This document shows, piece by piece, positions 7,112 to 25,929 of a stretch of DNA of 64,000 bases. The translations under genes and the position numbers were made by a program. The stretch is from an uncultured delta proteobacterium (GTDB lineage: Bacteria > Myxococcota_A > Polyangia > Polyangiales > Polyangiaceae), in contig CAWAIF010000003.1 in NCBI GenBank assembly GCA_963782055.1, positions 6,759,948 through 6,823,947 on the forward strand, in the 5' to 3' direction. The first letter of the stretch is position 1, and each line of letters begins with the position of its first letter. The notes beneath the pieces are model-generated. The model was not told the origin of the DNA. It saw only the letters and a list, made by a program, of their open reading frames with translations, and did no database searches.

Positions 7112-7517
7112 GGGAGTCGAACTGTGGACGCGGACGTTTGCCAGGCCGGCGATGTCGCTCGTCTTTCACGCGGAAGCGTTCGATTCCCTTCGCCTTTCCC
7201 GCGTCGCGGGTCTCCACGCGGTTCGACGCCGGTCGACATGGATCGACCAGGGTCGTGGAGACATTCTGGAAACGTGTACTGTGCACGCATTCTCCGGCAC
7301 TCCACCGCACGGAAACCGCCGAAGAGGTGTAGGCTGAGCCCATGGCGTGTCCTCGGTCGTCGCGGTGTCGCAAGCGCGAATGCGGCGCCCCGTGATGAGC
7401 GACAATTGTTCCTGCAGGTCGACGACAACTATTCCTGCAGGTCGGTCGCCGTCCTGACGGCACGTGCGAGGCTGCGGTCCGGTGCTGCGGGCCGGCCCCG
7501 GGGCTCCAGGAGCTCCG

Positions 7518-10434: not shown

Positions 10435-11691
10435 ATGCACCTTCAATCTATCCTGCGCCGGCTGCAGCCGCAGCCCGGATTCGTCTACGACAAGATCACC
10501 TGGGCCGGGACGCCCACGCGGCCAGCGCTGCACGTCCACGTTCGACCTCGCCGCGGGTCCCTTGCCGTGTGCTCGCACTGCTACCGGAAGCGGCGCGGCT
10601 ACGACCACGGGCCGCCGCGCCTGTTCACCTTCGTGCCGCTCTGGGGCATCGCGGTGTTGTTCGTCTATGCGATGCGCCGCGTGGACTGTCCGCGTTGCGG
10701 CGTTACGGTGGAGCTGGTGCCCTGGGCCTCCGGCAAGAGCCAGGCGACGCACGCGTTCGTGTGGTTCGTCGCGAGCTGGGCGCGGGTGCTCTCGTGGACG
10801 GAGGTGGCGCGCCGCTTCCACTCGAGCTGGGACACCGTCTTCCGCTGCGTCGAGCACGCGGTACAGTGGGGCCTCGAGCATCGCAGCCTCGATGGCATCC
10901 GGTCCATCGGCGTCGACGAGCTGGCCTGGAAGAAGGGGCAGAAGTACCTCACCGTCGTCTACCAGCTCGACCACGGCTGCCGCCGCCTGCTCCACATCGC
11001 CCGCGACCGCACCGCCGCGAGCTTCCATTCCTTCTTCGACATGCTCGGCGAGGAGCGCACCAAGGCTATCGCCTTCGTGGCCAGCGACATGTGGCGTGCC
11101 TTCCTCAGCGTCGTGCAGGCCCGCTGCTCCGTCGTCCTCCACGTGCTCGACCGCTTCCACGTCGCCAAGCTCCTCGGCGAGGCCGTCGACACCGTGCGGC
11201 GCGACGAGGTCCGCGCCCTGCGCGCCACCGGACGCCACCCCCTGCTCACCAAGACCCGCTGGCTCCTGCTCAAGCGGCCCAAGAACCTCCGGCGTGGCGA
11301 GCGCCTCCGGCTGCGCGAGCTCGTCCGCATCAACCTTCGCTCCGTCCGTGCCTACCTGCTCAAGGAGCAGTTCCAGCACTTCTGGACCTACACCTCCGTC
11401 GCCGGGGCCGGGCGCTTCCTCGACGGCTGGACCACCATGGCCTTGCGGTCCCGCCTCGCGCCCTTTGCGAAGTTCGCGCGCACCCTCCGGAGCCACCGAC
11501 GCGAGCTGCTCAACTGGTTCCTCGCCCGAGGCGAGTTCGCCGCGGGCGCCACCGAGGGATTCAACAACAAGGCGCGAGTTACGACCCGAAAGGCGTACGG
11601 CTTCCGCAGCCCAAGGCACGCCGAAATCGCTCTGTATCATGCGCTTGGTGCCCTACCCGAGCCGCCTTGGCTCACCCACAGATTCTGCTGA
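10435..11691 (+). CDS. ISL3-family transposase
   Basis: zf-ISL3-like CSHCYRKRRGYDHG...CPRCG, DDE_Tnp_ISL3-like core (IGVDELAWKKGQKYLTVVYQLDHG..., ...RKAYGFRS). The ORF track's upstream extension to 10327 is probably leader. The 3' end overlaps the convergent HNH-like gene by 39 nt. Confidence 0.75.
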   Translation: MHLQSILRRLQPQPGFVYDKITWAGTPTRPALHVHVRPRRGSLAVCSHCYRKRRGYDHGPPRLFTFVPLWGIAVLFVYAMRRVDCPRCGVTVELVPWASGKSQATHAFVWFVASWARVLSWTEVARRFHSSWDTVFRCVEHAVQWGLEHRSLDGIRSIGVDELAWKKGQKYLTVVYQLDHGCRRLLHIARDRTAASFHSFFDMLGEERTKAIAFVASDMWRAFLSVVQARCSVVLHVLDRFHVAKLLGEAVDTVRRDEVRALRATGRHPLLTKTRWLLLKRPKNLRRGERLRLRELVRINLRSVRAYLLKEQFQHFWTYTSVAGAGRFLDGWTTMALRSRLAPFAKFARTLRSHRRELLNWFLARGEFAAGATEGFNNKARVTTRKAYGFRSPRHAEIALYHALGALPEPPWLTHRFC

Positions 11692-12117
11692 GGAGGCCCA
11701 TTTCTTCAGCACACGATCGATCCGCGGCCATTCGATTTTCTGCGTTAGGCGTCGACCAAGGTGAAGACCATCCGCTGAACGAAGATCGACCACCTCGAAG
11801 CCACGCTCGATGGATCGTCGGAGGCCATAATCTTTCCTCAAACCACGCATCGCCGTCGGGTAGATACGCTGGCCCGTTGCGGACAGTACGGTCTCGCTCA
11901 GGCTCAACAAGCCACGAAGGTAGTCCTCGTCCTTCTTCGGACCCTCATTGCATGGCCGACAGCTTGGAACGATGAGCTTGTCCAAGTCGCTCGGCCGCGG
12001 CTCGGGGAAGAACTGACGTCCGACGCAATGCTCTTGATCACGCGCAGCGCCCGAGAGACTTGTGCCGCAGTACGTGCACACAATCGACGTCGTGGATGCG
12101 GTCAACGCGCCTTTCAT
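11653..12117 (-). CDS. Small HNH-like (zinc-ribbon betabetaalpha-Me) nuclease-domain protein, 154 aa; third gene of the coupled operon
   Basis: MKGALTASTTSIVCTYCGTSLSGAARDQEHCVGRQFFPEPRPSDLDKLIVPSCRPCNEGPKKDE. CxxCG ... EH ... CxxCN spacing fits the HNH fold. ATG 12117-12115 overlaps the TGA of the DUF4238 gene (ATGA read on minus strand, tcat at 12114-12117). The Arg-rich 242-aa N-terminal extension in the ORF track (to 12381) overlaps the DUF4238 gene in another frame and is rejected. Confidence 0.6.
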   Translation of the reverse strand: MKGALTASTTSIVCTYCGTSLSGAARDQEHCVGRQFFPEPRPSDLDKLIVPSCRPCNEGPKKDEDYLRGLLSLSETVLSATGQRIYPTAMRGLRKDYGLRRSIERGFEVVDLRSADGLHLGRRLTQKIEWPRIDRVLKKWASSAESVGEPRRLG

Positions 12118-13280
12118 TTGCGTTCGTGCGAAGCACCCTCTGCAGGCCGCGCCTTCGCCGCCGCGGCGACCTGTTGCTCGAGGAAATCTCCGTACTCGTG
12201 CGCAAACGCCAACAGCGTCGGATTTCGGACCGGAACGGCCGGACCGTCGTAGTCCGCGTACGAGTGGCCGTCGATCACGCGCGCGAACGACAGCTTCCCG
12301 CCGATGCGCACCTCGGTCTTCGTCACGACGACGAACTGACTCATCTTCCCGTCCGGGCGCTGCGTGATTGGACTCGTCCACCTCTTATGCTGGTGCATCG
12401 GTGGATGCGCTCGGCGGCGACGCTGCACCAACTCGAGATGCTCGGTCGTCATGCGTGCCAACGAGAAGTACATGCACGTGATCGCGTTCACGGCTTGCAT
12501 CTGGTTCAAGTGCTCGACGTCCTTCGGGCCTGCGCGACAGACCAAACTTTTCCCACCGTACTCGTAGACGCTGGGGTCGAAGACCGCGAGCACAACACTC
12601 GGCGACAGCGGCATGAAGAGCTGCAACCCCTTGAGTGCGATTCCAGTGCTCGTGGGGTAGCGCTTCAGGACGTCATGGTGTTCGGCGAACTGGTTGTACG
12701 CAACCACCGGATGATCGGCGATCACGAATCCTGGCGTGCGGTCGGTCGTGATGAACTTGACGGCGAGGTCGTAAAACAGTGGCGTACTCTTGGCGGCTTG
12801 CCAGATCGCTTCCCCTTGCGGCTCGGTGTAGCCGATCTTCACGAGATCGACGTCCTCGGGTGTGACCTCGGACTTCTTGTTGAGCGCGATCGTGCCCTTC
12901 ATCGCCGGCTTCAACATGGAGTCGACGAAAGCGTTCAGCCGTTCAGCTGCTCCCTTGGTGCGCGCGAGCTGGTAGGCCATGAAGAACCGAAGCGGATCAA
13001 TCGCTTCCTCGGTGAGGCTCTCGAGATGTTCCCGCGAGAGATCGCCGAGCAGGCGAGAGACCTTCGCCTCCTCGTCAGCGAATGATTTCTCCATGATGTT
13101 GTCGGCGCCGTAGAAGTAGTCCGCGTAGCACTGCTGCTTGAGTGGCGCGTTGTCGATGCGCTTTCCGTCCTCGAGGACGATGAGCGAGATTCGATGTCCG
13201 TCGGCCGAGAACTTCCGCAACACGAACCGTGGCACATAGTGCTGCCGCTTCGTCTCTCCTTTTCGTGCCGTAGTGGTCAT
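12114..13280 (-). CDS. DUF4238-family protein (N-terminal KRQHYVPRFVLRKF motif), 388 aa; second gene of the coupled operon
   Basis: The N-terminal HYVP(Q/R)F motif is the hallmark I associate with Pfam DUF4238. Lower GC (~58%) than surroundings. ATG 13280-13278 overlaps the TGA of the upstream 598-aa gene (tcat at 13277-13280). Confidence 0.75.
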   Translation of the reverse strand: MTTTARKGETKRQHYVPRFVLRKFSADGHRISLIVLEDGKRIDNAPLKQQCYADYFYGADNIMEKSFADEEAKVSRLLGDLSREHLESLTEEAIDPLRFFMAYQLARTKGAAERLNAFVDSMLKPAMKGTIALNKKSEVTPEDVDLVKIGYTEPQGEAIWQAAKSTPLFYDLAVKFITTDRTPGFVIADHPVVAYNQFAEHHDVLKRYPTSTGIALKGLQLFMPLSPSVVLAVFDPSVYEYGGKSLVCRAGPKDVEHLNQMQAVNAITCMYFSLARMTTEHLELVQRRRRAHPPMHQHKRWTSPITQRPDGKMSQFVVVTKTEVRIGGKLSFARVIDGHSYADYDGPAVPVRNPTLLAFAHEYGDFLEQQVAAAAKARPAEGASHERK

Positions 13281-15073
13281 TTCGGAGCCTCGGGTGTTGA
13301 TTTCGCTTCATGTGGCGGCGGCTGCGTCGCGACGAGCGCGAACAACACGCAGAGCCGTAGCGCCAACCACCAGACGTACGCGGCGGTCGTGGACCGACAT
13401 TGGTCGTCGTCCAGCAACCCGTGAGCTTCGAGATGGCGAAGGTTCGACCCGAATCGTTCGATGAGGAGCCCGCGAAGGTCGAACACGACGTCTTCGCCAA
13501 AGATCTGCTTCACGAGCTCGAGGCCGAGGAGGTGATCGAGTTGGTGGCCGTCCTGGATTCCCTCGCTGTCCAAACCGAACCCGCGACCACCATTCTGCTC
13601 GACCACGAATCGGAGTGAGTTCTCGAGTTGAGGCACGAGAAGCGCCGTCGCGAGCATGAAGTCGCCGCGCAGTCCGGCTGCAAGACCGCGCGCAAAGCGA
13701 ACGTCATGCCCCGGCGGAAGGAACGGGCTATGTCGCACGATCTGAGAAAGATCCTCGTCTCGGACGTGGTGCTCTTCGCAGATCGCGCGACGTGCGGGTT
13801 CGAGCAGACACGCGGTGAGATGCTGGAGCATGCGCGCGTGGTCGAACATCAAAGGCTCCAGCGCTTCCTTTTCCGAAAGACCGGGTGCAGGCTGACGAAG
13901 CCCCGTCGTGCGGCCCGTCTTCGCATCCACGACGGACGTCGCGAAGAGGTATCGCATCGGTGATTCGCGCGCGCTGTCCATCACGACCTGCTTGAGCCCG
14001 GCAACGCTGGGAGACCGCGTCAACGTCGCGAGCGCGATGAGAGCGTCGGTCACCGTGGGTTTCCCGCGAACAGCCGCAATCGCTTGCTTGACCTCCTCGG
14101 TGAGGTCGACGCTCGCGCTGTACTCACGAAAATCGCGGACCGATCGCTGCTGATACTCGCGCATCGTCTTCAGGAGCTCCTCGACGCGAGCGGCCTGATT
14201 GCCGACACGGCGGAGGGCTTCGATGGCCTTCTGCATATGCATGGCCGCAACGCCGTTGCCGCCAGCGTTGGCTGTGACGTCCGCAAGCGAGACGAGCGCT
14301 TCCACGCTTGCGATCCGCGCTGCTCGTGCAGCGGGCGCGTCTTTCGCAAGGTCGAACCAACGCGCCGCGATGTTGTACAGCGTTTCAGCTCGCAGTCCGT
14401 CGTGCGCGGCATTGGCGTCCGCGCCGATCGCCATCGCGAGCTTGCCGTACTTCTGAGCATCCCCGAGACGATGTTCGAGCAACAGCTCCATGAGCTTTGC
14501 CGACAGATAAAGCGGGTCCTTGCCTCCGAGCCGATCGAGAAGGAGTTCGATGTGCGCGACGACAGCGGTGAAAGGCGCGTTCCTTTTTCCAAGCGACGCT
14601 GCCAGACGAAGAGCACGCTGAATGCGCCAAAAACATCCGCACCAGTTCGTTGGATCTTCGAGTCGCACAGCGGACTCGAGGTATGCGGTCACCGCGGCTT
14701 CGGCCGCTTTCCGGTCGTGACGTCGAAGCCACAGCACGTCACCGACACGAGCGCGCAACTCCGCGTCGGTGTCCGTCGCGAGCAACGGCACGAGCGAGTC
14801 GAGTTGTTCGCCCGTGAGTGCGTCGATTCGATCGCGAGGTGCCAGCACGTCGTCGCCCTCCTCGCGGAGGAACGGCTCGCAGACGTCGCTCAGGAGAAGC
14901 AGTTCCGCTTTTTGTGTGGCGTCATTGGCGTCGTTTGCCGCGCGCCGGAACCCGACCGCGTACTGGTAACACTCCTTCGGGTTCGCGGCGTCGACGACTT
15001 CGCGCCAAGCAACGGTAGTAGCCTCGGACGGCGCGGTCATGGCGCACCTGCCGACGTCGCAGACCCGGTCCAA
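13277..15073 (-). CDS. Large alpha-helical protein (598 aa) with C-terminal HEPN-like Rx4H motif (ERFGSNLRHLEAHGLL); first gene of the coupled operon
   Basis: Long ORF. C-terminal ...FGEDVVFDLRGLLIERFGSNLRHLEAHG matches the R-x4-6-H HEPN RNase signature with the downstream AHG typical of Abi/HEPN proteins. The rest has no recognisable catalytic motif. Start may be ATG 15073 or the internal MTAPSE at about 15040. Confidence 0.65.
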   Translation of the reverse strand: MDRVCDVGRCAMTAPSEATTVAWREVVDAANPKECYQYAVGFRRAANDANDATQKAELLLLSDVCEPFLREEGDDVLAPRDRIDALTGEQLDSLVPLLATDTDAELRARVGDVLWLRRHDRKAAEAAVTAYLESAVRLEDPTNWCGCFWRIQRALRLAASLGKRNAPFTAVVAHIELLLDRLGGKDPLYLSAKLMELLLEHRLGDAQKYGKLAMAIGADANAAHDGLRAETLYNIAARWFDLAKDAPAARAARIASVEALVSLADVTANAGGNGVAAMHMQKAIEALRRVGNQAARVEELLKTMREYQQRSVRDFREYSASVDLTEEVKQAIAAVRGKPTVTDALIALATLTRSPSVAGLKQVVMDSARESPMRYLFATSVVDAKTGRTTGLRQPAPGLSEKEALEPLMFDHARMLQHLTACLLEPARRAICEEHHVRDEDLSQIVRHSPFLPPGHDVRFARGLAAGLRGDFMLATALLVPQLENSLRFVVEQNGGRGFGLDSEGIQDGHQLDHLLGLELVKQIFGEDVVFDLRGLLIERFGSNLRHLEAHGLLDDDQCRSTTAAYVWWLALRLCVLFALVATQPPPHEAKSTPEAPK

Positions 15074-15542
15074 ACTGACAGAGACCTACGGGAAATCGTG
15101 GACGATGCGGAGCATCGAACGCCCAACAATTGGGCACGAGAAGACTTTTTCATCGCTTCGACCGACGACTGGTTTGCGTACCCGGAAGATCCGGTTGGCG
15201 TATGTGCAGTCGGTCACGATGGACGTTGGCTCCATCGACGACGCGGAGCAAGACTCGGTCGACGCAATTACATTCGCCAACGCGGAAAAAGAACTGTGAA
15301 GGGAGCCTTCTTCGGGCGCGATGGCCCGGACCCTCATGGTCGACGCGCAGAGGCCTTACGCGGTCGGCCCGGGAGCGTACGGGATTTGAGCGCGGTTTTC
15401 CACGAGCCTCGAGCCCTCGGGGCACCGCCGCCGGCGGTGTGGTGGTGCGCCTGAACGTCGCATGGCGGCCGCGGCGGCGGGCGGAGCGCCGGTTTCCACG
15501 GGATTTTCGCCTCGCGCGCGCACCGGTCCGTGACCGAGGGCG

Positions 15543-16671
15543 TCAGGCGGCGACGATGGCGCCGGCGATGCGGCGGATGACGGCGCTGCGGTAGTAGGGC
15601 GGAGCGCGGGCGGGCGCGCGCGGCGGGACGTCGTGTGGCTCGCCGAGCCCCTCGAGAAACCTCCGGATGCCGCGCGGCTCCTGCACCATCGCGACGAGCT
15701 TCATGCGGCCCTCGCACTTCGGGCACTTCTGCACGTCCACCGCGAAGGTGCGGGCCATGAGCTCCGCCCACGGCCAGTAGCGGGAGCGCTTCGGCTTGTC
15801 GTCGTCCTGCGCTGTCGCCGGCGCGGAGGCGGGCGGGCGGCGGACGATCTTCGGGCGCACTTTGCTGGCGGAGGCGAGCACGCCGGCGTAGCGGACGGTG
15901 TGGAAGCGCGGCGCGGGGACGGCGGCGCAGAGGCGCAAGAGGAGCGAGAGCGGGTCCATGTCGACAGCGACGGGTCCCCTGTCGCCTGGCCGCCGAAGGC
16001 GGACAGCTGCGACGGGGCTGGCCGTCGGAGAAAGGCTTCTTGAGCGCGATGCGCACCAGGTTGTCCGGTCCTCGGGCGATGCGCTCCTGGGCGACGGGCG
16101 GGCGCAGGATGTAGCGCAGGAGCGCCTCGCGCCCGGCGGCGTCGAGGGCGCCGGCGCGGGTGGCGGCGTGCAGGTTGAAGCCCTCGTCCTGGGCGCAGAG
16201 CTCGGCGCGCGAGGAGCCCGTGCCGAAGCTCGCGCCGCGGCGGAGCGCGGGGCCGGCGGGCGGGTGGCCGCGCACGCTGGTGAGCATGGGCTGCACGTCC
16301 TCGTCGTCGGCACGCTCCTCGGCGCGGGCGAGCAGGCGCTCGATGCGGCGGCGAGCGCGGGCGAGCACCTCGGCAACCTCGCTACCGCGCAGGTGGCCGA
16401 GGGCGCGGAAGCGCGGCTCGCCGTCCACCTCGACGTAGCCGCCGTCCAGGAAGACGGCGTGCACGTGCGGGTTGAGCTTGAGATCGCTCGAGGTGCGCTG
16501 CACGACGGCGACGCAGCCGCTCGCGCCCGCCCGCTTCTTGTAGAACGCAACCACCGTCGCGAGGAAGGCGCGCGTCACCTTGCCGAGCAGCGGGGCGTTG
16601 TAGGCGAGGCGATGCCGGATGGCGTGCGGCATGGTGAGCACCCACTGCCGCAGCGGGGCCTCCGGCAGCAC
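15543..16671 (-). pseudogene. IS91-family (HUH/Y2 rolling-circle) transposase, N-terminally truncated and frameshifted
   Basis: Across two frames: ...VLPEAPLRQWVLTMPHAIRHRLAY...LNPHVHAVFLDGGY (HUH)...GFNLHAATR...LLRYILRPPVAQERI...VRIALKKPFSDG, then in another frame ...FHTVRYAGVLASASKVRP...RYWPWAELMARTFAVDVQKCPKCEGRMKLVAMVQEPRGIRRFLEGLG (IS91 C-terminus). No start codon or Zn-finger N-terminus. Confidence 0.65.
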
Positions 16672-17415
16672 GACGTGATCGCCGCGGAGGACACGCGCCA
16701 CACGCGCAAGCTGCTCACGCACCACGGCGTCACCGGCAAGGAGCTCGTCGCGCTGCACGCCCACTCCACCGGGCGCGACGTGGCGAGGCTGGTGGAGCCG
16801 CTGCGCGGCGGGGAGTCGGTGGCGCTGGTGACCGACGCCGGCACGCCCGGCGTGAGCGATCCCGGCGACGCCCTGGTGCGCGGGGCGATCGAGGCGGGCG
16901 TGCGCGTCGTGCCGGTGCCGGGGCCGAGCGCGGTGCTCGCCGCGCTGGTGGCGAGCGGTCTGGGCACGGGCGGCGCCTTCCGCTTCCTCGGCTTCCTCCC
17001 GCGGTCGGGGACGGAGCGGGAGGAGGCGCTGGGCCGCGCGGCGGCGACGCCGGAGCCGGTGGTCCTCTACGAGGCGCCGGGACGTGTGCAAGATACACTG
17101 ATCGATCTGGCGCGCGCGACGCCCGCGCGGCGCGGGTGCGTCGCGCGGGAGCTCACCAAGGTGCACGAGGAGCTCACGCGCGGGACGCTGGAGGAGCTCG
17201 CGGCCGACACGCGCGAGTGGCGCGGGGAGGTGGTCATCGTGCTCGGCCCGCACCACGCGGCGGAGGCGGCGGTGGACGACGCCTCGCTGGACGTTCGCAT
17301 CGCGGAGGAGCTGGCGCGCGGCGAGCCGGCGCGCCGCATCGCCGAGCGCCTGGCCGCGTGGAGCGGGCGGCCGAAGCGCGAGGTGTACGAGCGCGTCCTG
17401 CGGAGGAAGAAGTAG
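16672..17415 (+). pseudogene. rsmI: rsmI (16S rRNA 2'-O-ribose C1402 methyltransferase), 5'-truncated; about 40 N-terminal codons including the GTLYxVxTPIGN SAM-loop are missing
   Basis: DVIAAEDTRHTRKLLTHHGVTGKELVALHAHSTGRD...ESVALVTDAGTPGVSDPG...VRVVPVPGPSAVLAALVASGL...FLGFLP...PVVLYEAPGRV...ARELTKVHEE aligns along the whole E. coli RsmI from the AAEDTR box. The preceding frame lacks the conserved N-terminal motif and abuts the IS91 fragment on the opposite strand. Confidence 0.7.
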
Positions 17416-17486
17416 GCTGGTATCCTCCCGCGGTGCGACCCGCCCTCGCTCTGCCCGCGGCCGCCTGCTCGGCGCCGCCGGATCCG

Positions 17487-17990
17487 TCAGGCGGCCCCGA
17501 CCACGGCGTGACGCTCTACGTGCACCAGTACGGCAGCGCAGCGTACACACCGAACGGCGAGACCACGAGCTGGGCCGGGATCTCGTACGTCTACGACCCG
17601 CTCGGGAATCTCCGCCAGGTGCAGTACGCCGATGTCCACGATGGCCTGCGCGAAGGTGGCGTTGTACTGCTCGACGTCGCGCCCCCTGCCAGACCGCTTC
17701 ACGATGGTCCTGGGGCGGTCGAAGACGGCCATCAGGGGCAACCCGCCGAAGGCGACGAAGTGGCGCGCCAGGCAGCGCACGACCGTCTCGACGCGCTCGT
17801 TGTCGACGAGGGAGACGCCGACGAAGCGTCGAGTACTTCAGGCGCGAGGCGAAGAAGACGAAGGTGACGTCGACGTGCCCGAAGTCATGCTGCGAGAGCT
17901 CGCCGGGCAGGCCCTCGAAGCGCACGACGGGGGCAGCGCGGGGTGGGCGGACGCCGGCGACCAGGGCGTAGAAGGCCGACTTGTGGCCCG
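17487..17990 (-). pseudogene. IS21-family IstA fragment (two frames)
   Basis: ...VRFEGLPGELSQHDFGHVDVTFVFFASRLKYS... (compare the RHEAGREGSFDFTDASELGVTIAGEAFPHLFFQLVLSFSKW of the intact copy) and FGGLPLMAVFDRPRTIVKRSG...QYNATFAQAIVDIGV in a second frame. Confidence 0.5.
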
Positions 17991-18085
17991 CGTACCCCGC
18001 CTCGGTCGCGCCCACCACGACCTGCCCTTCTGACTGCGCTCCTCGATTCTCGTGCTCGACGCTCCCTCCATCTTCGTGACCACGC

Positions 18086-18640
18086 TCACTTGGGTGGCCG
18101 CGAGCGCTCCCAGCGCGCGAGGGCGTCAGCCTCGGCGCGACGCACCGTGCGCCAAGCGAGCCCGTACTTGGTCGCGACGTGCGAGAGCGGCATCGAGTAG
18201 GCGTCGAGCGCGAGGTGGTGCTGCAGCCTCGTCGTCTGCCGCTGCTTCGGCTCCGCCCAGGGCAGTCTGTCGGTCGCGTGGGCACCGCAGCGCGGACACT
18301 TCACACGCACGGGCGCGTACTCGATCCGTGCACGCCGGCCGGCCCACGGCAGGTCCTCCCACCGTCGCGTCTTGCGACGCTCGTGGGTGCGGCCCGTCAC
18401 GATCGTCATGCACTGCCCGCAGCGCGGCGACCACCGCCGCACGAGCGACAGCACGAGCACGGCGCCCGCGGGGACATCGAAGCCGGCCACCGACTCGATG
18501 CGCTCCCCCGTCCGCGTCTCCCATCTCGCTTCATGCACGTTGAAACCTCGAAACCCGACAATCTCTGTGAGAATCTCTCGTCGCTGACCCAGCGCGGCGT
18601 GCTCCCGGTTGTTTGCACATCCAAGAGATCGCCACGGCAA
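18086..18640 (-). pseudogene. ISL3-family transposase N-terminal fragment (zf-ISL3 + HTH), truncated after about 184 aa
   Basis: ...WSPRCGQC...VRVKCPRCGAHATDRLPWAEPKQRQTTRLQHHLALDAYSMPLSHVATKYGLAWRTVRR. Same architecture as the intact ISL3 at 10435 but a different sequence. The DDE domain is absent. Confidence 0.6.
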
Positions 18641-18848
18641 TTCGGCCGCGTCGATGGGTCAGCACTCTCTCTACGCGAGGTCGGAAATGCCGCCCCTTTC
18701 ACGCGCTCGATCGGTGGTCACGCCAGCCCCCATTCGGCCGAAAAGCGGGAAAACCGCGCTCAATTCCCCTACGCTCCCGCCCCCAAATCGTGACGCCGAT
18801 ATAGCCCTCGTCACTTGACGCCACCCTGCGTCCGGGTACCTTGATCGG

Positions 18849-20321
18849 ATGCGGCACAATCTCCTTGCTTTTATCGCCTTGGCGCACGCCGCAACGATTG
18901 GCGCTGGCTGTGCGGTCGACGAAGGCAGTGCGGAGTCGCAAGCCGAGCCCTTGTCGGCGGCGGCCGCGGTCCAGACCTACATCGACACCACATTCTATTC
19001 CGATGCCGACATCCAGTATTCCTTCGCCACGACCGCAGGCGAGAAGGTGGACTGCATCGACTTCTACTCGCAGCGGTCGGTGCGCTCGCAGCTCGCGCGA
19101 GGCGCGTGGGTGCCTGACCCCGCCAGCCTGCCCGATCCGCCACCCATGCCGGGTTCCATCCCGAAGCCCCACAAGCCAGCCGGCGCATCCGTCGCGTTCG
19201 ACGGGACACTCGACGCAAACGGCCACGCCCAAAAGTGCCCGGCAGGAACCGTGCCCACCATGCGCCCGACGGTCAAGGCCATCGCGGCGGCTGGGGGCTT
19301 GGACGCCTACCGGAGCCGGCGCCCGCCGCTCCCTATGAAGGATCCGAACCAGGATCCCATTCAGCACGACTGCTACCACCAGTTCTCGCCGGGCCCCGGT
19401 TACGATCACGCTGCTGGCGTGCATATGCCGGTCGGGACCTACTATGGAGCCCTCTCATTCCTTTCGATCAATCAACCATACGTGTACAACACAAGCACTG
19501 AACACAGTCTGTCTGAGATCTGGATACAAACGGGCGATTGTGAGAGCTGGACATCTTATAATGACCCCGACAATTGCACGACTGGTGGCAATGGCGACGC
19601 CGTGCAGTCGCTCGAGGTAGGCTGGATGGTCGGGGACGACAGTCTATGGTCGAATGAACCGCAAGCTCCGCACCTGTTCGTATTCATTACGCAAGACGGA
19701 TATGATACCAAGTGGTGCTTTTCAGGGTCCTCCTACTGTTATACGGATTATCCCTACGGCAACTCCACAGCTGATGCTTGGGTCATTGCGCCCGGCGCGC
19801 CCTTTACCCTAAATCAGTCCCTGGGCCAGTACGTGCAACCGCTCGGGTCAGACCCCGCGGAGATGGCGATCCAGGTATGGAACGGCACCACCCACGGATA
19901 TCCCGCCTGGTTCGTATGGATTGATGGTCAGCTCCTCGGCTGGTATCCGGCCGACACCTTTGCCGGACAGATGCAATCGTCCGCAAGTTACATACAAGCG
20001 GGTGGCGAAGTTTATGACAGTTGGCCCAACAACGCTCACACCACAACACAGTTGGGGACGGGAATCTTTCCCTCCGTGCCACCGCCGGCCCAGACCTACC
20101 AAATGTGCTCGTACCAACGAAACCTCAGCTACATCGACTCTGGAAGCAACTATAATGACATGGCTCTCGGTTTTATTACCACGCCGCCTGCCGAGCTGGA
20201 CGACAATCGTCTGGGGATCTGCGGCTACGACGCGGGCGACTACGGATACGGCCTCGACCTAGGCGACCTGCCATCAGGTTGGGGATCGAGCTTCTCCTTC
20301 GGTGGCAACGAGATATTTTGA
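18849..20321 (+). CDS. Neprosin (DUF239, glutamic peptidase G3)-like secreted lipoprotein with N-terminal activation-peptide region
   Basis: Lipoprotein signal LAFIALAHAATIGAGC. Motifs SLEVGWMVGDD...PHLFVFITQDGYDTKWCF...GYPAWFVWIDGQLLGWYPADTFAG...ASYIQAGGEVY match DUF239 conserved blocks as I recall them (EVGW..., ...GWWL..GYWP..LF, ...GGEV). GC drops to about 50% across the gene. Confidence 0.7.
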   Translation: MRHNLLAFIALAHAATIGAGCAVDEGSAESQAEPLSAAAAVQTYIDTTFYSDADIQYSFATTAGEKVDCIDFYSQRSVRSQLARGAWVPDPASLPDPPPMPGSIPKPHKPAGASVAFDGTLDANGHAQKCPAGTVPTMRPTVKAIAAAGGLDAYRSRRPPLPMKDPNQDPIQHDCYHQFSPGPGYDHAAGVHMPVGTYYGALSFLSINQPYVYNTSTEHSLSEIWIQTGDCESWTSYNDPDNCTTGGNGDAVQSLEVGWMVGDDSLWSNEPQAPHLFVFITQDGYDTKWCFSGSSYCYTDYPYGNSTADAWVIAPGAPFTLNQSLGQYVQPLGSDPAEMAIQVWNGTTHGYPAWFVWIDGQLLGWYPADTFAGQMQSSASYIQAGGEVYDSWPNNAHTTTQLGTGIFPSVPPPAQTYQMCSYQRNLSYIDSGSNYNDMALGFITTPPAELDDNRLGICGYDAGDYGYGLDLGDLPSGWGSSFSFGGNEIF

Positions 20322-20336
20322 GACACAGGATAGCAC

Positions 20337-20666
20337 ATGTCGTATTCCAGCAAGATCATCCCTCCCTCGATGATGGTGTTGGTGTTCTTGGCATCCTCGG
20401 GTTGTAATGCCCAGGTGCTTCCACCGATGCCTGACGCAAGCAACCTCGATGCTGACACCGACGCGGCTGACGGGATGGCCCGCGAAGACGCTCAGCCCGA
20501 GGATGCTGATACCGATGCGCCACTGGAGATCCTTGACGGGGGATGTCCAAAGACTGTGCCATGCAATACGCCGCCCAACGTGGCGTGTAGAAATCGTTGC
20601 GTGTTACTTCACTGTGTGAACGGTCTTTGGAAGATTGTGCCCGACAGCGGCGTGCCTTGCCCATGA
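20337..20666 (+). CDS. Small Cys-rich lipoprotein (109 aa) in the same low-GC islet
   Basis: Signal and lipobox VLVFLASSGC, acidic linker, C-terminal C-x4-C...C-x3-C-x4-C cluster. 13 bp downstream of the neprosin-like gene. Confidence 0.5.
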   Translation: MSYSSKIIPPSMMVLVFLASSGCNAQVLPPMPDASNLDADTDAADGMAREDAQPEDADTDAPLEILDGGCPKTVPCNTPPNVACRNRCVLLHCVNGLWKIVPDSGVPCP

Positions 20667-20899
20667 CGACACGTGTCGTAGTCGCTGATCTCGGGCGATC
20701 ATAACGTCTCGCGAGCATAGGAAAGCCTATGCGCGATCGGTGAGCATAGGAAAGGGTGTAGTTCTCATCGTGACGCCTTCGCCCGCGGTTTTCGCGGTGG
20801 ACTCTGCGGCTTGATCGCGAGGACGTTCGCGAGGACGGTGACGTCGGCGTGAAAGGTCGCCGCGACGAGGGCCCACGCTTTGTCGAAGCATCTCTACGC

Positions 20900-21080
20900 C
20901 GGGGGGAGCGTCGGCAGCAGCACGAGGTACACCGTGTGCGCTTCCCCGTCGGTCAGCGCGGGCGAGCAGGCGCTCGATGCGGCGGCGCGCTCTGGCGAGG
21001 ACCTCGGCGACCTCGGTGCCGCGCAGGTGGCCGAGGGCGCGGAAGCGCGGCTCGCCGTCCACCTCGACGTAGCCGGATCC
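20900..21080 (-). pseudogene. Second partial copy of the IS91-family transposase (about 180 bp, near-identical to 16280-16450)
   Basis: Nucleotide repeat seen directly. Encodes GYVEVDGEPRFRALGHLRGTEVAEVLARARRRIERLLARA. Confidence 0.55.
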
Positions 21081-21134
21081 CGACGCTCTATGGACATTCT
21101 GGCGGCAGAGGAGGGGTTGTGTCCCGGAGGTCGA

Positions 21135-22625
21135 GCCATGACCCCGAGGGGCATGGCCAGATCCTTTGGACATAACGTGGCGGAATGATGGAAATAAATC
21201 GGGCGCCTTTCTCGTTGTTCGGTTGCGACACCAACAAGGAGAGGACGCCCGATGACGACGAGAGCTACCCGAGCCACGAGCAGCCGTCCAGACCCGAGCG
21301 AAGAGGCGAGCGCGGTGGAGGAGCAGCTGCAGCGGACCTTCACGCCGGCGGTCATCGACGAGCTTCGGGGCCGCACCGGCTACAACCCGCGGCAGCGGCG
21401 CGCCACCGCGTTCCGCCTGGTGCTCACGGTCGTCGAGGGGTTCCTCGCGGGCCAGACGCTGTCGTTCGAGTCGCTGCGGGCGATCTTCGTGAGGCGCTTC
21501 GGCTTCATGCGCCCGTGCCCGTTCCAGAAGCGGTTCAAGCAGGAGTCGGCGGCGGCGTTCTTCCGCGCGGCGCTCGAGCACCTCGTGGCGTCGGTGACGA
21601 AGGCGGCGGGCCTGGAGCTGAGCGGGCCGCTCGCCCGCTTCGAGGACGTGCGGGTCTACGACGGTACGGGGCAGCGCGTGCCACCGCGCGGGCGCGAGCT
21701 GCTGCCGGGATGCACCAAGGGCAAGGCCGGCACCAAGTGGGTGATGGGCTACAGCATCAAGACCGGCCTGCTCGAGCACGGCGTCTCCGACGCGGAGACC
21801 GCGTCGGAGACGCCGCTGTGGCGGAAGCTGGTCCCGAGCTTCACGCGCGGGGTGCTCTACCTCTTCGACCTCGGCTTTTTCGAGCGCGCTCTGTTCACGC
21901 AGGCGAAGGCTGCCGGCGCGCACGTGCTGATGCGCCTCAAGACCACGGCGAAGGTACGCGTGACCGCGCACATCTCGGAGAACGGCCACACCCCGCTCCA
22001 CAACTGGTCGCTTGGCTACTACCTGCAGAGCGTGTCGCGCAAGCGCGGGACGATCTTCGACCTCGACGTGACGTGGGGCAAGGGCAAGGACACCGTCGCA
22101 TTGCGGCTCGTGGGACTCGCGCACAAGTCGACCGTCATCCGCTGGTACCTGACCACCGTGCCGCGCAGCGTGCTCTCGCCACGGCAGATCATCCAGACCT
22201 ACCGACTCCGCTGGCTGATCGAGCTGCTCTTTCGCGAGCTGAAGCAGACCGCCGACCTCGGCCGCTCCTTCACCGCCGATCCCCACGCGATCAAGGCGCT
22301 CACCTACGGCGCGATGCTCGCCCACGCGCTCGTGCGCTCGGTCAGGATCCAGGCTGCACTCGCGCGCGACGTCCCTCTCGAGCAACTGCGCCCCCTGGCG
22401 ACGTTGCACGTCGTGCGCGCCTACGCGCGGGACCTGGTCGACGCCCTCGTCTCCCTGAGCACCGCCGCGTGGACTGCCGTCGTGACCACCGTGGGCGCGG
22501 CACTCGTCGCTCTGGCACGCGAACGACAACCTTCACGCTCCAGGAAACGAATCGCCCTCAAACTTGGGGCGATCGGTGCTTAAGAGATCGGGCATGCCCC
22601 GAGGGGCCGGGGCAATACATCCAGA
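21135..22625 (+). mobile_element. IS4-family insertion sequence
   Basis: Terminal inverted repeats containing CCCCGAGGGGCATGGCCAGATC (left) and its near-reverse-complement GATCGGGCATGCCCCGAGGGG (right). Encloses the IS4 transposase gene. Confidence 0.6.
21252..22583 (+). CDS. IS4-family (DDE_Tnp_1) transposase
   Basis: 443 aa. ...VLYLFDLGFF..., ...YRLRWLIELLFRELKQ... typical IS4 C-terminal block. Confidence 0.8.
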   Translation: MTTRATRATSSRPDPSEEASAVEEQLQRTFTPAVIDELRGRTGYNPRQRRATAFRLVLTVVEGFLAGQTLSFESLRAIFVRRFGFMRPCPFQKRFKQESAAAFFRAALEHLVASVTKAAGLELSGPLARFEDVRVYDGTGQRVPPRGRELLPGCTKGKAGTKWVMGYSIKTGLLEHGVSDAETASETPLWRKLVPSFTRGVLYLFDLGFFERALFTQAKAAGAHVLMRLKTTAKVRVTAHISENGHTPLHNWSLGYYLQSVSRKRGTIFDLDVTWGKGKDTVALRLVGLAHKSTVIRWYLTTVPRSVLSPRQIIQTYRLRWLIELLFRELKQTADLGRSFTADPHAIKALTYGAMLAHALVRSVRIQAALARDVPLEQLRPLATLHVVRAYARDLVDALVSLSTAAWTAVVTTVGAALVALARERQPSRSRKRIALKLGAIGA

Positions 22626-23262
22626 CCCCAGTCTGCAGGCCGCACCCCCAGTAGTCGCATTCCAACGCGCTATCAAGGTTACATGCCGAGCCAAGCTTCG
22701 GCCGTGGAACGGGGCAGCCAGGCACTGGAGCCTCGCACGACCACTTCATCACGGAACCCCCGTCCGCGCTGTTACCCACCTTGGCGCACCCGCAGAAACC
22801 CTCCGTGTACGAGCACAGCGCCGGGTCCGTCGGAGCACACGCCTGGCCGCGCGGGACGGACGCGAAGTCGATGGCGCACTTCGAGTCGTTGGGCGCGGTA
22901 GGACACGAGGCGTCGGCGACTCCAACGGCCCTTGGAGTCCATGTGCCGGCGTCGTCGCAAACGTAGAGCGTATTGCAAGCCAGGTTCGGATCCTCTCCGT
23001 ACTCGCATACCTTGAGAAGAGACATGCAACTGCCGCCGTCACACCCCCCTCTCGGTGGCACACAAGGTGCCCCAGCTTCAGGCGGACTCGGCGGACAGCT
23101 GAAAGTGCGGGCGTCCACTGAAGCGGAGTCCATCGCAGCTCCGTCATCGCCACGGTCAGCGGCGACATCCATACCCGCATCGTTGCTAGTGGACGACTGG
23201 TTCAAGCAGCCTACAAGCGCCATAGCAGCGGCGAACACCAAGTAGCGGCCCCGAGCAATCAT
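22558..23262 (-). CDS. Cys-rich secreted lipoprotein; 3' end lies inside the IS4 right inverted repeat and is probably altered by the insertion
   Basis: Signal MIARGRYLVFAAAMALVGC. About 20 Cys. The last codons (...GPSGHARSLKHRSPQV) are encoded by IS4 terminal sequence. Confidence 0.5.
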   Translation of the reverse strand: MIARGRYLVFAAAMALVGCLNQSSTSNDAGMDVAADRGDDGAAMDSASVDARTFSCPPSPPEAGAPCVPPRGGCDGGSCMSLLKVCEYGEDPNLACNTLYVCDDAGTWTPRAVGVADASCPTAPNDSKCAIDFASVPRGQACAPTDPALCSYTEGFCGCAKVGNSADGGSVMKWSCEAPVPGCPVPRPKLGSACNLDSALECDYWGCGLQTGVWMYCPGPSGHARSLKHRSPQV

Positions 23263-23451
23263 CTTCCCCTCCGCTCCTACCACGTCGCCAACGAGCTACC
23301 GTTGACCGGCAAGAAACCTGCTGTGAGGTCCGTCCATCCATGCCAACCAAAGTCCCAAATCGCCTGAGAAAACCGACCGTTACTGGTCGGGGCCGACACC
23401 ATCACGCGCTGATCCCCCATGCCAACGGCCGCCGGGCTGCCGACGAAAGGG

Positions 23452-24964
23452 TCTCTGCTTAGCGGCCGGAAGACGGCCCGCGGCCCGGGCGTGACGTCGA
23501 CCGTCGGAGGACTCGCCGGCTAGTGGGCAAAGACAGACGGCGGCGGCTTGCCGTGGAGGTGACTTTCGTACAGCCCGATGACGAAGCCCCGAAGCGGGAG
23601 CCGGCACTTGCGCCGCGTCTGCGTGATGCTCATCCAGTGCGCCAGGGTGGCGCTGCCGGCGGCCGAGCGCGTTCCGCCGGTCATCGCGCGGTGCCGCCCG
23701 TGGGCGCGGATGTCGCGTTCGGTCGCGTTGTTCGTGGCCGGGACGTCGGGGCGGTCGATGAAGAGCGTCACCCCCACCTTGTGTTCGTCGAGGCGCTCCT
23801 GCAGCCGGACGATGTCCGGGAACTCCACGAAGTTGGGGCTGCTGATGAGATGGCCGAGGCGGGTGCGCGCGCCCCTGCGCTGTCCGGGGTCGCCGCTCGC
23901 CGCGGCCTCCTTGCCGGCCACGTAGAATGCAATCAGCCGGTCGCGGAACTCCTCGGTCGCGGCGCACGGGGTGAGCTCGGCGATCTTCTTCGCCTCGCGG
24001 ATGGTGTGCGCACCGCAGTAGGCGTGGGTCCAGCCGTCGTGACTCGTGTACACGCCGTAGAAGTCGGTGCACAGGACTCCTTTGAAGCTCGCGCCGAGCA
24101 TCGACTCGGCGACCCACGCGCCGCGCGACAGCTCGGCGCGGAAGACCGAGACGCGGTCGGTGCGCATCAGCCACATCCAACCCGGCACGCCGTCCTGTCG
24201 ATGGCCGCTCTCGTCGAGGCCCGCCACGGGCGATGCGCGCACCGCGTCGACCAGCTCGTCGTAGCTCGGCGCCGAGCGGCGTCGCAATCGGTCGAACATC
24301 TGCGCCAGGCCGCCCGTCGTGATCGAGATGCCGAGCCACTGTCCGAGGAACGCACTGATCTTGCCCAGCGGCATGTCGCGCTCGAAGCGCAGGTCCAGCG
24401 CCATCGCCTGCACGTTGGGGCCGAACGACACCGCGGCGACGCTCTTGCCCGCCGCCGGCGCGCCCGGCAGCTTCGCGACCACGCGCTTGTGGCACACCTC
24501 GCAGCTGCCGACGTGCGCCACGTGATGCGTCTGCCGCGGCTGCACCACTGGGATGTCGGTGACGACTGTGCTGTCCGTCTCGCCCGTCGCCACGACTGCC
24601 CCGCCACAGCTGCACGTCGCCGGCATCTCGTGCACGACTTCGTCGTCGACCTGGGCCGGTGCGGCGGGCCGCGATCCGACATGGCCCACCTTGCGGCCGC
24701 GCGGCTTGCCCGAGGGCGCCCGCCGACCCTCGGAGCGCGACGTCCGCCGCTTCCCGCGCTCCCGGAACCCGCGCTTCCACTCCTCGATCTCCTTGCGCAG
24801 CTTCGCCAGCTCTTCGCGAAGCGCGGCGTTCTCCTGCTCCAGCTCCTGGATCCGCTGCTCGGGCGTCACGTGATCCGGGATGCTCCCGATCAGGTCCCAT
24901 GGAAAGAACTTCTCGCATCAGGAACGAAGAATGGACCCACAGTGTGCGACACCGCTAAGCAGAC
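23452..24964 (-). mobile_element. IS66-family single-ORF element inserted into an integrase gene
   Basis: Short inverted repeats TCTGCTTAGCGG (23453-23464) and CCGCTAAGCAGA (24950-24961) flank the transposase. Confidence 0.5.
23520..24869 (-). CDS. IS66-family transposase (TnpC-like)
   Basis: N-terminal leucine-zipper (MTPEQRIQELEQENAALREELAKLRKEIEEW), Cys cluster (CSCGG...CEVCHK), DDE core, C-terminal ...HWMSITQTRRKCRLPLRGFVIGLYESHL typical of IS66 TnpC. Confidence 0.8.
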   Translation of the reverse strand: MTPEQRIQELEQENAALREELAKLRKEIEEWKRGFRERGKRRTSRSEGRRAPSGKPRGRKVGHVGSRPAAPAQVDDEVVHEMPATCSCGGAVVATGETDSTVVTDIPVVQPRQTHHVAHVGSCEVCHKRVVAKLPGAPAAGKSVAAVSFGPNVQAMALDLRFERDMPLGKISAFLGQWLGISITTGGLAQMFDRLRRRSAPSYDELVDAVRASPVAGLDESGHRQDGVPGWMWLMRTDRVSVFRAELSRGAWVAESMLGASFKGVLCTDFYGVYTSHDGWTHAYCGAHTIREAKKIAELTPCAATEEFRDRLIAFYVAGKEAAASGDPGQRRGARTRLGHLISSPNFVEFPDIVRLQERLDEHKVGVTLFIDRPDVPATNNATERDIRAHGRHRAMTGGTRSAAGSATLAHWMSITQTRRKCRLPLRGFVIGLYESHLHGKPPPSVFAH

Positions 24965-25114
24965 ACCTGCGACTGCCCCGCGTCGCCCGCGCACCGGCCG
25001 CCGAGGCAACCCCAAACCAGCGGCTTGCCGGTGTAGACACCCGCCTTGTCGGCGACCAGCCGGCCTTGATCGTCGGTGTGGATGGCCGCGCCGTCGCCGT
25101 CGGTGGACCCACTG

Positions 25115-25454
25115 CATCCTCTACGCCGACGAAGGCCGCGAGCTCACCAACAAGGTGGTCCGCAAGTGGCTGGAGCGGGCGCAGCAGGCGGCGGGGCTGA
25201 CGGCGACGGGAGGGCTGCACCAGCTCAGGCACACCTTCTGCTCCGCCCTGGCAGCGACCGGGGCGCCGCCGAAGGCCATCCAGGAGCTGGCCGGGCACCA
25301 GAACCTCTCCACGACGATGCGGTACATGCACCTGTCCCCGGCCTCGCGGGAGAGCGCCATCGGTCTGCTCGATGTCGCCCGCCAGCGGGCCGGGGACCGG
25401 CGCGGCCGTGGAGATATCCTGGAGACGGGCGGGAGGAGGCCCGAAACCCCGTGA
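25115..25454 (+). pseudogene. Tyrosine recombinase (phage-type integrase) C-terminal catalytic fragment; 5' part disrupted by the IS66 element
   Basis: ...LHQLRHTFCSALAATGAPPKAIQELAGHQNLSTTMRYMHLSP... (R-H-R-Y catalytic region, HxLRHT and Y-box). Stop lies 5 nt before att copy A. Confidence 0.65.
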
Positions 25455-25459
25455 AATAG

Positions 25460-25480
25460 TGGTGGAGGCGCTGGGAGTCG
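25460..25480. repeat. Proximal direct repeat (att copy A) of the ssrA 3' end: TGGTGGAGGCGCTGGGAGTCG
   Basis: 21/21 nt identical to 25574-25594, including the CCA-complement. Lies next to the integrase 3' end. Confidence 0.6.
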
Positions 25481-25537
25481 CACGTTGCTGGACGCCGTGC
25501 ACCGGGTCCCCCCCGTGAACGAGTCCAGCAACGTCGA

Positions 25538-25559: not shown

Positions 25560-25573
25560 CTCGCTTCAGGCAG

Positions 25574-25929
25574 TGGTGGAGGCGCTGGGAGTCGAACCCA
25601 GGTCCGAAAACGCATCCCTCCTGCTTCTACGTGCGTAGCCGGTCTATTGAATCGCTCCGCGCCGCGCCAGCCGGCAGGCTCGCCGTAGAGCTATTCACCT
25701 GTTTGATCTCGCCTCGCGCCCGGTGAACCGACGTCCGGCCAGCCAACTTGGTCGCGCCCTTCCCGAGGCGTTGGCGGGCCTCTGGGTTGGACGGCTCTCA
25801 GTGCTTTTTAGGCAGCGAGGGCGATTGCGTTATCGTTCGCAATTGTTTTTTCCGCGCGTTTTTACGTGTACCCGCGGGTCACGGCACGCTGCAAGGACTT
25901 CAGCGTCCCCGTCGAAACCGGTCGCCCCC
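25574..25929 (-). ncRNA. ssrA: tmRNA (SsrA), 356 nt; tag reading frame GCG-AAC-GAU-AAC-GCA-AUC-GCC-CUC-GCU-GCC-UAA = (A)ANDNAIALAA
   Basis: The reverse complement starts GGGGGCGACCGGUUUCGACGGGGAC (canonical tmRNA 5' end) and ends ...GGACCUGGGUUCGACUCCCAGCGCCUCCACCA (T-arm + acceptor + CCA). The acceptor stem pairs 5' GGGGGCG with 3' CGCCUCC, including the G3:U wobble (alanine identity). Tag peptide and stop codon read directly. Confidence 0.92.

Follow-up and report, generated by a model that had tools for sequence, protein, structure and literature searches.

How did two lipoprotein genes with foreign codon usage come to lie between insertion sequence (IS) fragments in a GC-rich genome, and what might their products do together? 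This question is raised by positions 18849-20666 of a 64,000-nucleotide (nt) stretch of contig CAWAIF010000003.1 from an uncultured member of the Polyangiaceae (hereafter the window). A first-pass annotation, made from the sequence without database searches, had described there a two-gene islet coding for a neprosin (DUF239) family lipoprotein and a small Cys-rich lipoprotein, and had suggested that it was acquired horizontally. We confirmed that both open reading frames (ORFs) are real: 18849-20321 and 20337-20666, both on the plus strand, encode products of 490 and 109 amino acids (aa), respectively, and the C-terminal peptide blocks that the annotation had quoted were all found in the 490-aa product. 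Our analysis indicates that the pair is probably a horizontally acquired two-gene operon, carried in an island of ~18.5 kb at a transfer-messenger RNA (tmRNA) gene, which would encode a lipoprotein peptidase of zymogen type and a partner lipoprotein. None of the outcomes that the annotation had named as grounds for abandoning its interpretation was found, and the interpretation is supported.

Membership of the 490-aa protein (18849-20321, plus strand) in the neprosin family of glutamic peptidases is established. The annotation had recognized the family and asked for a Pfam search; PF03080 (Neprosin) gave 64.1 bits for the protein, with a cut-off of 22 and E 1.5e-17, and it also matched 19 of 19 clade members. 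Neprosin sequences in the PDB were found at E 6e-9 with the single sequence and at E 3e-20 with the clade profile. An AlphaFold model was built from 11 sequences and compared with the PDB by Foldseek. The top five matches were all neprosin structures (E 8e-19 to 4e-14, target-normalised TM 0.65-0.68), the best of them being the neprosin zymogen 7zu8_A (E 8e-19, TM 0.65), with ~18-22% identity to neprosin, and the first match that was not a neprosin appeared at E 9e-5.

The catalytic dyad and several of the residues that position it are in place. Neprosin residue numbers were taken from PDB alignments and PMC9343461, residues were mapped by MAFFT, and invariance in the clade was judged on an 11-sequence alignment. 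In neprosin, E188, E297, H134, W175, T186 and Y214 are catalytic or essential (PMC9343461). The catalytic domain here comprises residues 182-490 (19392-20318, plus strand), as delimited by this mapping. Both catalytic Glu residues, whose presence the annotation had left to be checked, were found: E256 (codon GAG, 19614-19616) corresponds to E188 and E387 (codon GAA, 20007-20009) to E297, and phmmer, hmmsearch and MAFFT agree on the alignment of this dyad. H187, W225, S254 and Y285 correspond to H134, W175, T186 and Y214, respectively. All six residues are invariant throughout the clade. Neprosin Y208, a subsite residue, is replaced by Phe, and a Cys-bracketed insertion is present at C231-C243. 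The mature domain has a predicted isoelectric point (pI) of 4.05, a net charge of -29 and only three Lys and Arg in 309 residues; such strong acidity is common to the whole clade and plant neprosin. This acid-protease-like composition is only suggestive of an acidic pH optimum. We infer from these sequence features that the 490-aa protein is a peptidase.

The enzyme is predicted to be made as a lipid-anchored zymogen. Both proteins satisfy PROSITE PS51257, which demands a basic n-region, an uncharged h-region and a lipobox Cys at position 15-35, in agreement with the lipidation predicted by the annotation. In the 490-aa protein, the signal peptide and lipobox (18849-18911, plus strand; MRHNLLAFIALAHAATIGAG followed by C21) have R2 in the n-region and end in ATIGAG before C21, which is invariant in the 11-sequence clade. 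In the 109-aa protein, K6 lies in the n-region and FLASSG precedes C23. Most relatives also pass this rule. A putative pro-domain of the neprosin activation-peptide type occupies approximately residues 41-181 (18969-19391, plus strand), as judged from PF14365 (Neprosin_AP) and from the zymogen alignment. The match to PF14365 covers profile positions 1-116 of 120, and 10 of 19 clade members match this profile at E <= 0.01. The alignment of the model with the zymogen extends over 417 columns, versus 263-279 with the mature enzyme, and this difference means that the N-terminal half also matches the pro-domain. By MAFFT, P181/G182 (FSPGP181/G182YDH) is aligned with the maturation site P128/S129 of neprosin, and this Pro-rich maturation linker is conserved in the form PGxG(Y/W)DH. 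The predicted order is thus a Sec/Lsp signal with the Cys21 lipobox, a short acidic linker, the pro-domain and an acidic beta-sandwich catalytic domain. Cleavage at P181/G182 would activate the enzyme and at the same time free the catalytic domain from the membrane, because a lipid anchor on the pro-domain side means that the activating cut should also detach the enzyme. Activation may therefore be coupled to membrane release, as far as can be read from this domain order.

The second gene (20337-20666, plus strand) encodes a small lipoprotein with a simple build. A signal with a lipobox reaching to C23 (20337-20405) is followed by an acidic linker of residues 24-66 (20406-20534, net charge -11) and a six-Cys module of residues 67-109 (20535-20663, pI 8.3), all on the plus strand. 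The gap between the genes measures 15 nt (20322-20336), not the 13 bp given by the annotation, and contains an AGGA Shine-Dalgarno motif (20327-20330, plus strand) 6 nt ahead of the ATG. No Shine-Dalgarno-like motif precedes the internal ATGs at 20370 and 20373. Since AGGA stands at a spacing of 6 nt before the ATG at 20337, the 109-aa form is favoured. Co-transcription with the peptidase gene is presumed. Searches of Pfam, NCBIfam, PADLOC and PDB sequences with the 109-aa protein gave no match, nor did word-indexed protein searches with the ORF and with an alignment of the module, and the exact sequence was absent from the protein collection. Two exhaustive phmmer matches among 1.84 billion representatives were Cys-free, phage-fibre-like repeats (VVNGAWDKVTPE) and were rejected as chance resemblance. 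A single-sequence AlphaFold model was too poor for a fold search (pLDDT 51, pTM 0.26).

Gene order is more informative on the 109-aa protein. We searched the non-redundant loci of the peptidase homologues, 194 kb with 2,369 ORFs, by phmmer. The protein matched only an ORF of locus L011 (E 2.5e-10) and one of L008 (E 9e-4), each directly downstream of the neprosin homologue there. The L011 ORF (~1958-2236), which is unannotated in its source, likewise has a lipobox, an acidic linker and a six-Cys module, and its Cys spacing is C6C7C3C4C14C versus C5C7C3C4C14C in the window. A hidden Markov model (HMM) of the module was built without L014 and L011 and detected both of them; it revealed multi-module proteins directly downstream of the peptidase gene in L004 and L014, and gave no matches elsewhere in the 194 kb. 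Across loci, the partner gene shares the strand of the peptidase gene and is separated from it by -14 to +17 nt. Nine independent loci belong to the closer clade (>=36% identity, with flanking sequence). In five of the nine, the peptidase gene is followed by a Cys-module gene; these are the window, L011, L008 (identical in L009, L010 and L012), L004 and L014. Also in five of nine (L003, L007, L008, L005 and L019), a lipoprotein of ~370-400 aa with a YWTD (LDL-receptor class B) propeller is adjacent; the YWTD repeat score of L008_377 is 23.4 bits against a cut-off of 21. Taken together, eight of the nine loci have a Cys-module or a YWTD-propeller gene and L002 has neither, and no remnant of a propeller gene was found in the window by tblastn or HMM search. 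Recurrence downstream of the peptidase in five of nine independent loci indicates that the 109-aa ORF is a genuine conserved partner. The annotation had offered a partnership as pure inference, and it is now backed by conserved synteny.

The composition of the islet sets it apart from its host. The annotation had put its GC content at ~50% against ~70% elsewhere. The latter value holds (window mean 0.70), and the former is too low, as 18849-20666 has a GC content of 0.596 and the minimum 300-nt window within it reaches 0.53. The islet is the lowest-GC 1.8-kb stretch of the window, lying ~3 standard deviations (SD) under the mean (SD 0.033). The low-GC stretch that the annotation saw is thus real; it does not start at 18849, because the first ~550 nt of the neprosin gene have 67% GC and the fall sits at ~19400, within the gene, after which the islet has 56% GC. 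The anomaly is clearer from codon positions than from raw GC. GC content at third codon positions (GC3) is 0.71 in the neprosin gene and 0.64 in the small ORF, compared with 0.90-0.97 in ordinary genes of the window. Neprosin homologue genes elsewhere are 2.5-6 GC points lower than their own flanks, so that the raw GC dip is partly intrinsic to the amino-acid composition of the family; an effect of this size falls far short of the GC3 gap seen in the islet.

GC3 also changes within the neprosin gene. It is 0.82 for codons 1-183, which include the pro-domain, and 0.65 thereafter, in the catalytic domain. The best-supported change point falls at codon 183 (nt 19398; permutation p ~0.003 after maximising over positions) and coincides with the predicted boundary between pro-domain and catalytic domain. 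Among the homologues, five of six show no significant GC3 change point and L003 is marginal at its 3' end (p 0.036); the step in L011 is weaker than that in the window gene. This hints at a mosaic gene. A recombinant origin was considered and is not demonstrated, as per-domain identities show no different nearest relatives for the two halves.

Together with this foreign codon usage, IS fragments on both sides and repeats of a tmRNA 3' end argue for horizontal acquisition, as the annotation had proposed. Vertical inheritance at the same GC was not seen: the nearest relatives are rare metagenomic sequences, at most 56-58% identical, and lie on contigs of 59-67% GC. The pair is likewise foreign in L011, with GC3 of 0.70 and 0.69 versus 0.87-0.90. 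The tmRNA (ssrA) gene, found by ARAGORN and by Rfam RF00023 (179.5 bits), lies at 25574-25929 on the minus strand and is the integration site. An attachment-like (att-like) copy of its 3' end, a 26-nt repeat with two mismatches, is found at 7097-7122 (plus strand), at the left edge of the island, and further copies are located at 25572-25597 and 25458-25483; the chance expectation of such repeats is 0.00. A C-terminal fragment of an integrase gene lies at 25026-25454 (plus strand; Phage_integrase, 61.9 bits). The tmRNA-end repeats bound a segment that contains this integrase fragment, and the islet is therefore cargo of an ssrA-integrated island. The island of ~18.5 kb spans a broad low-GC zone, with a GC content of 0.60-0.70 inside and 0.70-0.75 outside. 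At least five IS types have entered it: rve/Mu-C (7464-9005), ISL3 (10327-11691), IS91 pieces, IS4 (21252-22583) and IS66 (23520-24869). As a whole, the island can probably no longer move. Comparison of the island with plasmids by megablast gave no match.

The immediate flanks agree with the IS fragments that the annotation had named. On the left, a truncated ISL3 transposase gene (18086-18640, minus strand) retains only the N-terminal Zn-ribbon and helix-turn-helix (HTH) part (HTH_Tnp_ISL3, 43.8 bits; Zn_ribbon_ISL3, 20.7 bits). Between it and the islet, the right arm (18748-18797) of a 50-nt inverted repeat has its left arm at 15352-15401; the arms are 80% complementary overall, with an identical 16-nt core that occurs exactly twice in the window. 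This repeat closes a 3.4-kb composite of IS debris (15352-18797), which ends 51 bp before the neprosin ATG and holds pieces of an IS91-type transposase gene, an rsmI (TP_methylase) fragment (plus strand, ~16.7-17.4 kb) and the ISL3 N-terminal fragment. An ISL3-type inverted repeat is absent from the right side of the islet. There, an IS91-type (Y2 transposase) fragment of 123 nt (20953-21075, minus strand) begins 286 bp past the small ORF; it is 93% identical to 16319-16441, inside an ORF of the longer IS91 copy that scores 46.7 bits with Y2_Tnp. L001, an independent contig of short reads, matches 18634-20985 at 100% identity; it breaks off in the repeats on either side, on the right inside the IS91 fragment.

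The family of the 490-aa protein is sparse. Twenty relatives were found among 5.8 billion proteins, the nearest at 56% identity. When 185,579 species genomes were scanned with a profile of 11 full-length clade sequences, a single locus was found, in a Polyangiaceae metagenome-assembled genome; a scan of metagenomes yielded 11 loci. In L011 (512-2236), the closest relative with flanking DNA, the peptidase gene is split into 342-aa and 99-aa parts, by a frameshift or a long-read error. L017 carries two neprosin homologues in tandem on one contig (1738-5708). In the 849-aa clade member P0017, a malectin domain is joined to the N-terminal side of the peptidase. The homologue in L003 (2931-7535) lies among IS110 and DDE_5 transposase genes, and a transposase gene is found 2.4 kb downstream of the L008 cluster. 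In several phyla, neprosin-family genes seem to be moved as cargo associated with IS elements.

Several observations weigh against an acquired pair of zymogen peptidase and dedicated partner, and they are best considered with the alternatives that they favour. The confidence of the AlphaFold model is only moderate (pLDDT 58, pTM 0.69). The activation peptide proposed by the annotation is supported less firmly than the family: the match to PF14365 is nearly full length and the zymogen alignment is long, but the score of 23.8 bits is under the cut-off of 39.2; the clade profile gives a mere 1.8 bits on the neprosin pro-domain region. In the neprosin zymogen, the latency plug K118 forms a salt bridge with a catalytic Glu. 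This residue is I171 here and is variable in the clade (I, L, F, N, E, Q, A or G), whereas its neighbour Q119 corresponds to Q172 and is invariant; the Lys plug is a feature of plant latency and does not define the family. The essential Q173 of neprosin is E223 here (Gln in six and Glu in five of the 11 clade members), and Y136 falls in an alignment gap and is not alignable. Further subsite residues are exchanged, Q192 for M260, Y194 for G262 and E293 for Q383. Because the subsites differ, prolyl specificity cannot be assumed, and any assumption of post-proline cleavage, the activity that the annotation had named for the plant domain, is not supported as stated. It could be argued from the Glu at the Q173 position, from the malectin fusion and from a fold that galectins, GH16 enzymes and alginate lyases share at low Foldseek scores that the 490-aa protein is a non-catalytic, lectin-like beta-sandwich binding protein. 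This is very improbable, as the catalytic Glu pair and its hydrogen-bonding partners are invariant across the clade, the neprosin matches in Foldseek stand ~14 orders of magnitude above the lectin-type ones, and the pro-domain is retained. The doubts on the partner are of another kind. The 109-aa protein has no true relative among the 1.84 billion representatives and none detectable outside synteny, and searches of Pfam, NCBIfam, PADLOC and PDB revealed no similarity to any known inhibitor. Neither L002 nor the distant homologues have the partner; these genomes, and these very loci, often encode Cys-rich lipoproteins with an acidic linker (win_241, L007_188 and L005_572); and beyond L011, similarity is confined to a motif of ~20-50 residues. 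The small ORF might thus be one of many Cys-rich lipoproteins of myxobacterial style that lies nearby by chance and is uncoupled from a correctly assigned peptidase. We consider this unlikely: the sole matches among the 2,369 ORFs are directly downstream of neprosin homologues, on the same strand and at -14 to +17 nt, the L011 orthologue retains the Cys spacing and the overall build, and GC3 of the small ORF follows the peptidase gene and not the host both in the window and in L011.

Whether the pair is expressed at all is a separate matter. A scan of 18500-21300 for sigma-70-type promoters and for terminators found none, and since an IS-type inverted repeat ends 51 bp upstream of the peptidase gene, the native promoter may be gone. 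These findings, which also weigh against a working operon, fit an explanation in which IS activity separated the pair from its promoter and from a YWTD-propeller gene that had once been its third member, and left it as silent, decaying cargo. The propeller gene that follows the small gene in L008 is absent here, with IS91 and IS4 elements within 290 bp in its stead, the island integrase is a fragment, and the gene of the closest relative in L011 is split. Such decay is nevertheless rather unlikely. Both ORFs are full length with all clade-invariant residues and Cys intact, and the Shine-Dalgarno motif is kept; the promoter scan covered the sigma-70 consensus only, outward-reading promoters are common in IS elements, and the split in L011 may be a long-read indel error. 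One may also think of a lipoprotein toxin with its immunity protein, passed among kin by outer-membrane exchange as are SitA and SitI of Myxococcus. Both products are predicted lipoproteins, the small gene is immediately downstream of the enzyme gene, the location in mobile DNA and the rare, patchy distribution would suit such a system, and a myxobacterial host is probable. However, known SitI immunity proteins are cytoplasmic, where SitA toxins act. The searches linked neither product to a SitA escort domain or to any toxin or defence model, the enzyme is predicted to have the pro-domain of a classical zymogen, and the set often includes a YWTD-propeller lipoprotein as its third member. We therefore hold a toxin and immunity pair to be highly improbable. 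An acquired operon of a zymogen peptidase and its partner accounts best for the locus.

Within such an operon, the partner is most likely a regulator, an inhibitor or a tether of the enzyme, to judge from sequence and gene order. It would share a compartment with the enzyme and bind to it alone, either keeping it latent or inhibited or, as an alternative, tethering it or helping it to fold; an acidic tether of ~43 residues would carry the mildly basic, 43-residue six-Cys module. Three facts are in line with binding, latency control or inhibition: both products are predicted to reach one compartment, the basic module faces a very acidic enzyme, and the Lys plug is lost. A bolder version can be imagined. 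The 109-aa protein could be a trans-acting regulator whose basic module docks in the acidic cleft and replaces the lost Lys plug; with the YWTD lipoprotein, it would make up a protease module that is tethered to the surface, is released on activation and passes from one myxobacterium to another, and the GC3 step would mark a swapped-in foreign cassette of catalytic domain plus partner. This scheme is speculative and quite unlikely to hold. To our knowledge, no proteinaceous inhibitor of any glutamic peptidase is known, and none appears in the literature searched. If the scheme were true, the partner would be the first.

How does the pair compare with known systems? Neprosin from Nepenthes x ventrata (PF14365 plus PF03080; PDB 7ZU8, 7ZVA, 7ZVB and 7ZVC), a glutamic prolyl endopeptidase, is the sole characterised member of its peptidase family, and it shares with the 490-aa protein a two-domain zymogen architecture, as predicted for the latter, the beta-sandwich fold, the Glu-Glu dyad with its supporting His, Trp, Thr/Ser and Tyr, the Pro-rich maturation linker and a Lys/Arg-poor, acidic mature domain. 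The 490-aa protein differs in being bacterial, in having a predicted lipid anchor at the pro-domain end and a dedicated downstream partner gene, in lacking the K118 plug, in having Glu at the position of Q173 and altered S1, S3 and S3' residues, and in its C231-C243 insertion and longer C-terminus. Neprosin orthologues have been described as plant-restricted, and an origin by horizontal transfer has been proposed (PMC9343461). About 50 bacterial sequences of the family were listed in InterPro/Pfam in 2022, and the literature searched contains no experimentally characterised bacterial member. RefSeq has entries named 'neprosin family prolyl endopeptidase' or 'neprosin family protein' on plasmids of Novosphingobium and Streptomyces (NC_015579.1, NZ_CP009295.1 and CP090840.1), which belong to the same Pfam family and are also in mobile DNA; the Novosphingobium copy (L023, NC_015579.1) adjoins an IS21 element on a conjugative plasmid. 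These plasmid homologues form a different clade, with ~24% identity to the 490-aa protein, and have other neighbours: a 1161-aa hypothetical protein is encoded downstream, and the annotated genes include neither a Cys-module nor a YWTD-propeller gene. Eqolysins (MEROPS G1; scytalidoglutamic peptidase, PDB 2IFR) share the general beta-sandwich and an acid-active glutamic mechanism (Foldseek E 8e-4). They differ in having a Gln-Glu instead of a Glu-Glu dyad and in a far lower sequence similarity, and cross-mutants are inactive (PMC9343461). The enzyme family is therefore already known, with bacterial genes annotated in RefSeq, and it is the conserved partner that is new. What sets the protein apart from the known enzyme is its predicted lipid anchor before the pro-domain, the lack of a Lys plug, changed subsites and, most of all, the conserved partner genes.

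For the arrangement of the genes, a parallel exists in AprA/AprI of Pseudomonas and in serralysin/Inh of Serratia or Erwinia, where a small exported inhibitor is encoded beside a secreted protease and resides in the compartment through which the protease passes. Those systems consist of metalloproteases and soluble periplasmic inhibitors, whereas here both products are predicted lipoproteins and inhibition is hypothetical; AprI and Inh have no sequence similarity and no detectable structural similarity to the 109-aa protein. As for the island, ssrA islands as a class have direct repeats of the tmRNA 3' end at both edges, a tyrosine recombinase gene beside ssrA and a lower GC content. The island in the window resembles them in its tmRNA gene, edge repeats, integrase gene by ssrA, lower GC, mobile elements and probable defence cargo. 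It differs in that only a C-terminal fragment of the integrase gene is left and in that at least five IS types have rearranged it.

Other features of the region are as follows. Right after the stop codon of the small ORF is a perfect 12-nt palindrome, CGACACGTGTCG (20667-20678), and a 13-nt direct repeat, GAGCATAGGAAAG, occurs at 20713-20725 and 20742-20754, its first copy forming a GCATAGG/CCTATGC hairpin. RNA folding was no better than in shuffled sequences after the small ORF stop (z -0.99) or across the intergenic gap (z -0.36). An intact IS4-type DDE transposase gene (21252-22583, plus strand; DDE_Tnp_1, 67.5 bits) has a host-like GC3 of 0.91. It is followed by a gene for a 241-aa Cys-rich lipoprotein (win_241; 22558-23283, minus strand) with a lipobox and a GC3 of 0.70. 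By BLASTP, this lipoprotein matches L004_274 (E 1.3e-9), the 274-aa protein encoded directly downstream of the L004 neprosin homologue, and it is possibly part of the same cargo. The 3' end of its gene overlaps the end of the IS4 ORF, so that the C-terminus may have been altered by the insertion. Elsewhere in the island, 12114-15073 (minus strand) contains two adjacent genes of lower GC3 (0.80 and 0.73). One encodes a DUF4238 protein and the second a DUF7380+DUF4209 protein that matches PADLOC PDC-S39 at E 4e-163, a candidate anti-phage system; this gene pair is probably defence cargo of the tmRNA island. EspC/EspA-type kinases as best NCBIfam matches, the 70% GC and the relatives in Polyangiaceae make a myxobacterial host probable.

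These results have consequences for the family as a whole. A bacterial clade with a predicted complete zymogen architecture provides sequences with which the origin of the neprosin family can be tested. Neprosin is in development for oral use against coeliac disease (PMC9343461, PMC13269764), and the clade offers enzymes whose subsites and latency mechanism differ from those of the plant protein and whose pH range may differ as well. For annotation, the lesson is that synteny can bring to light a conserved small gene that was left uncalled in L011 and is missing from protein collections. If the Cys-module lipoprotein binds or inhibits its enzyme, it would open the control of glutamic peptidases by proteins.

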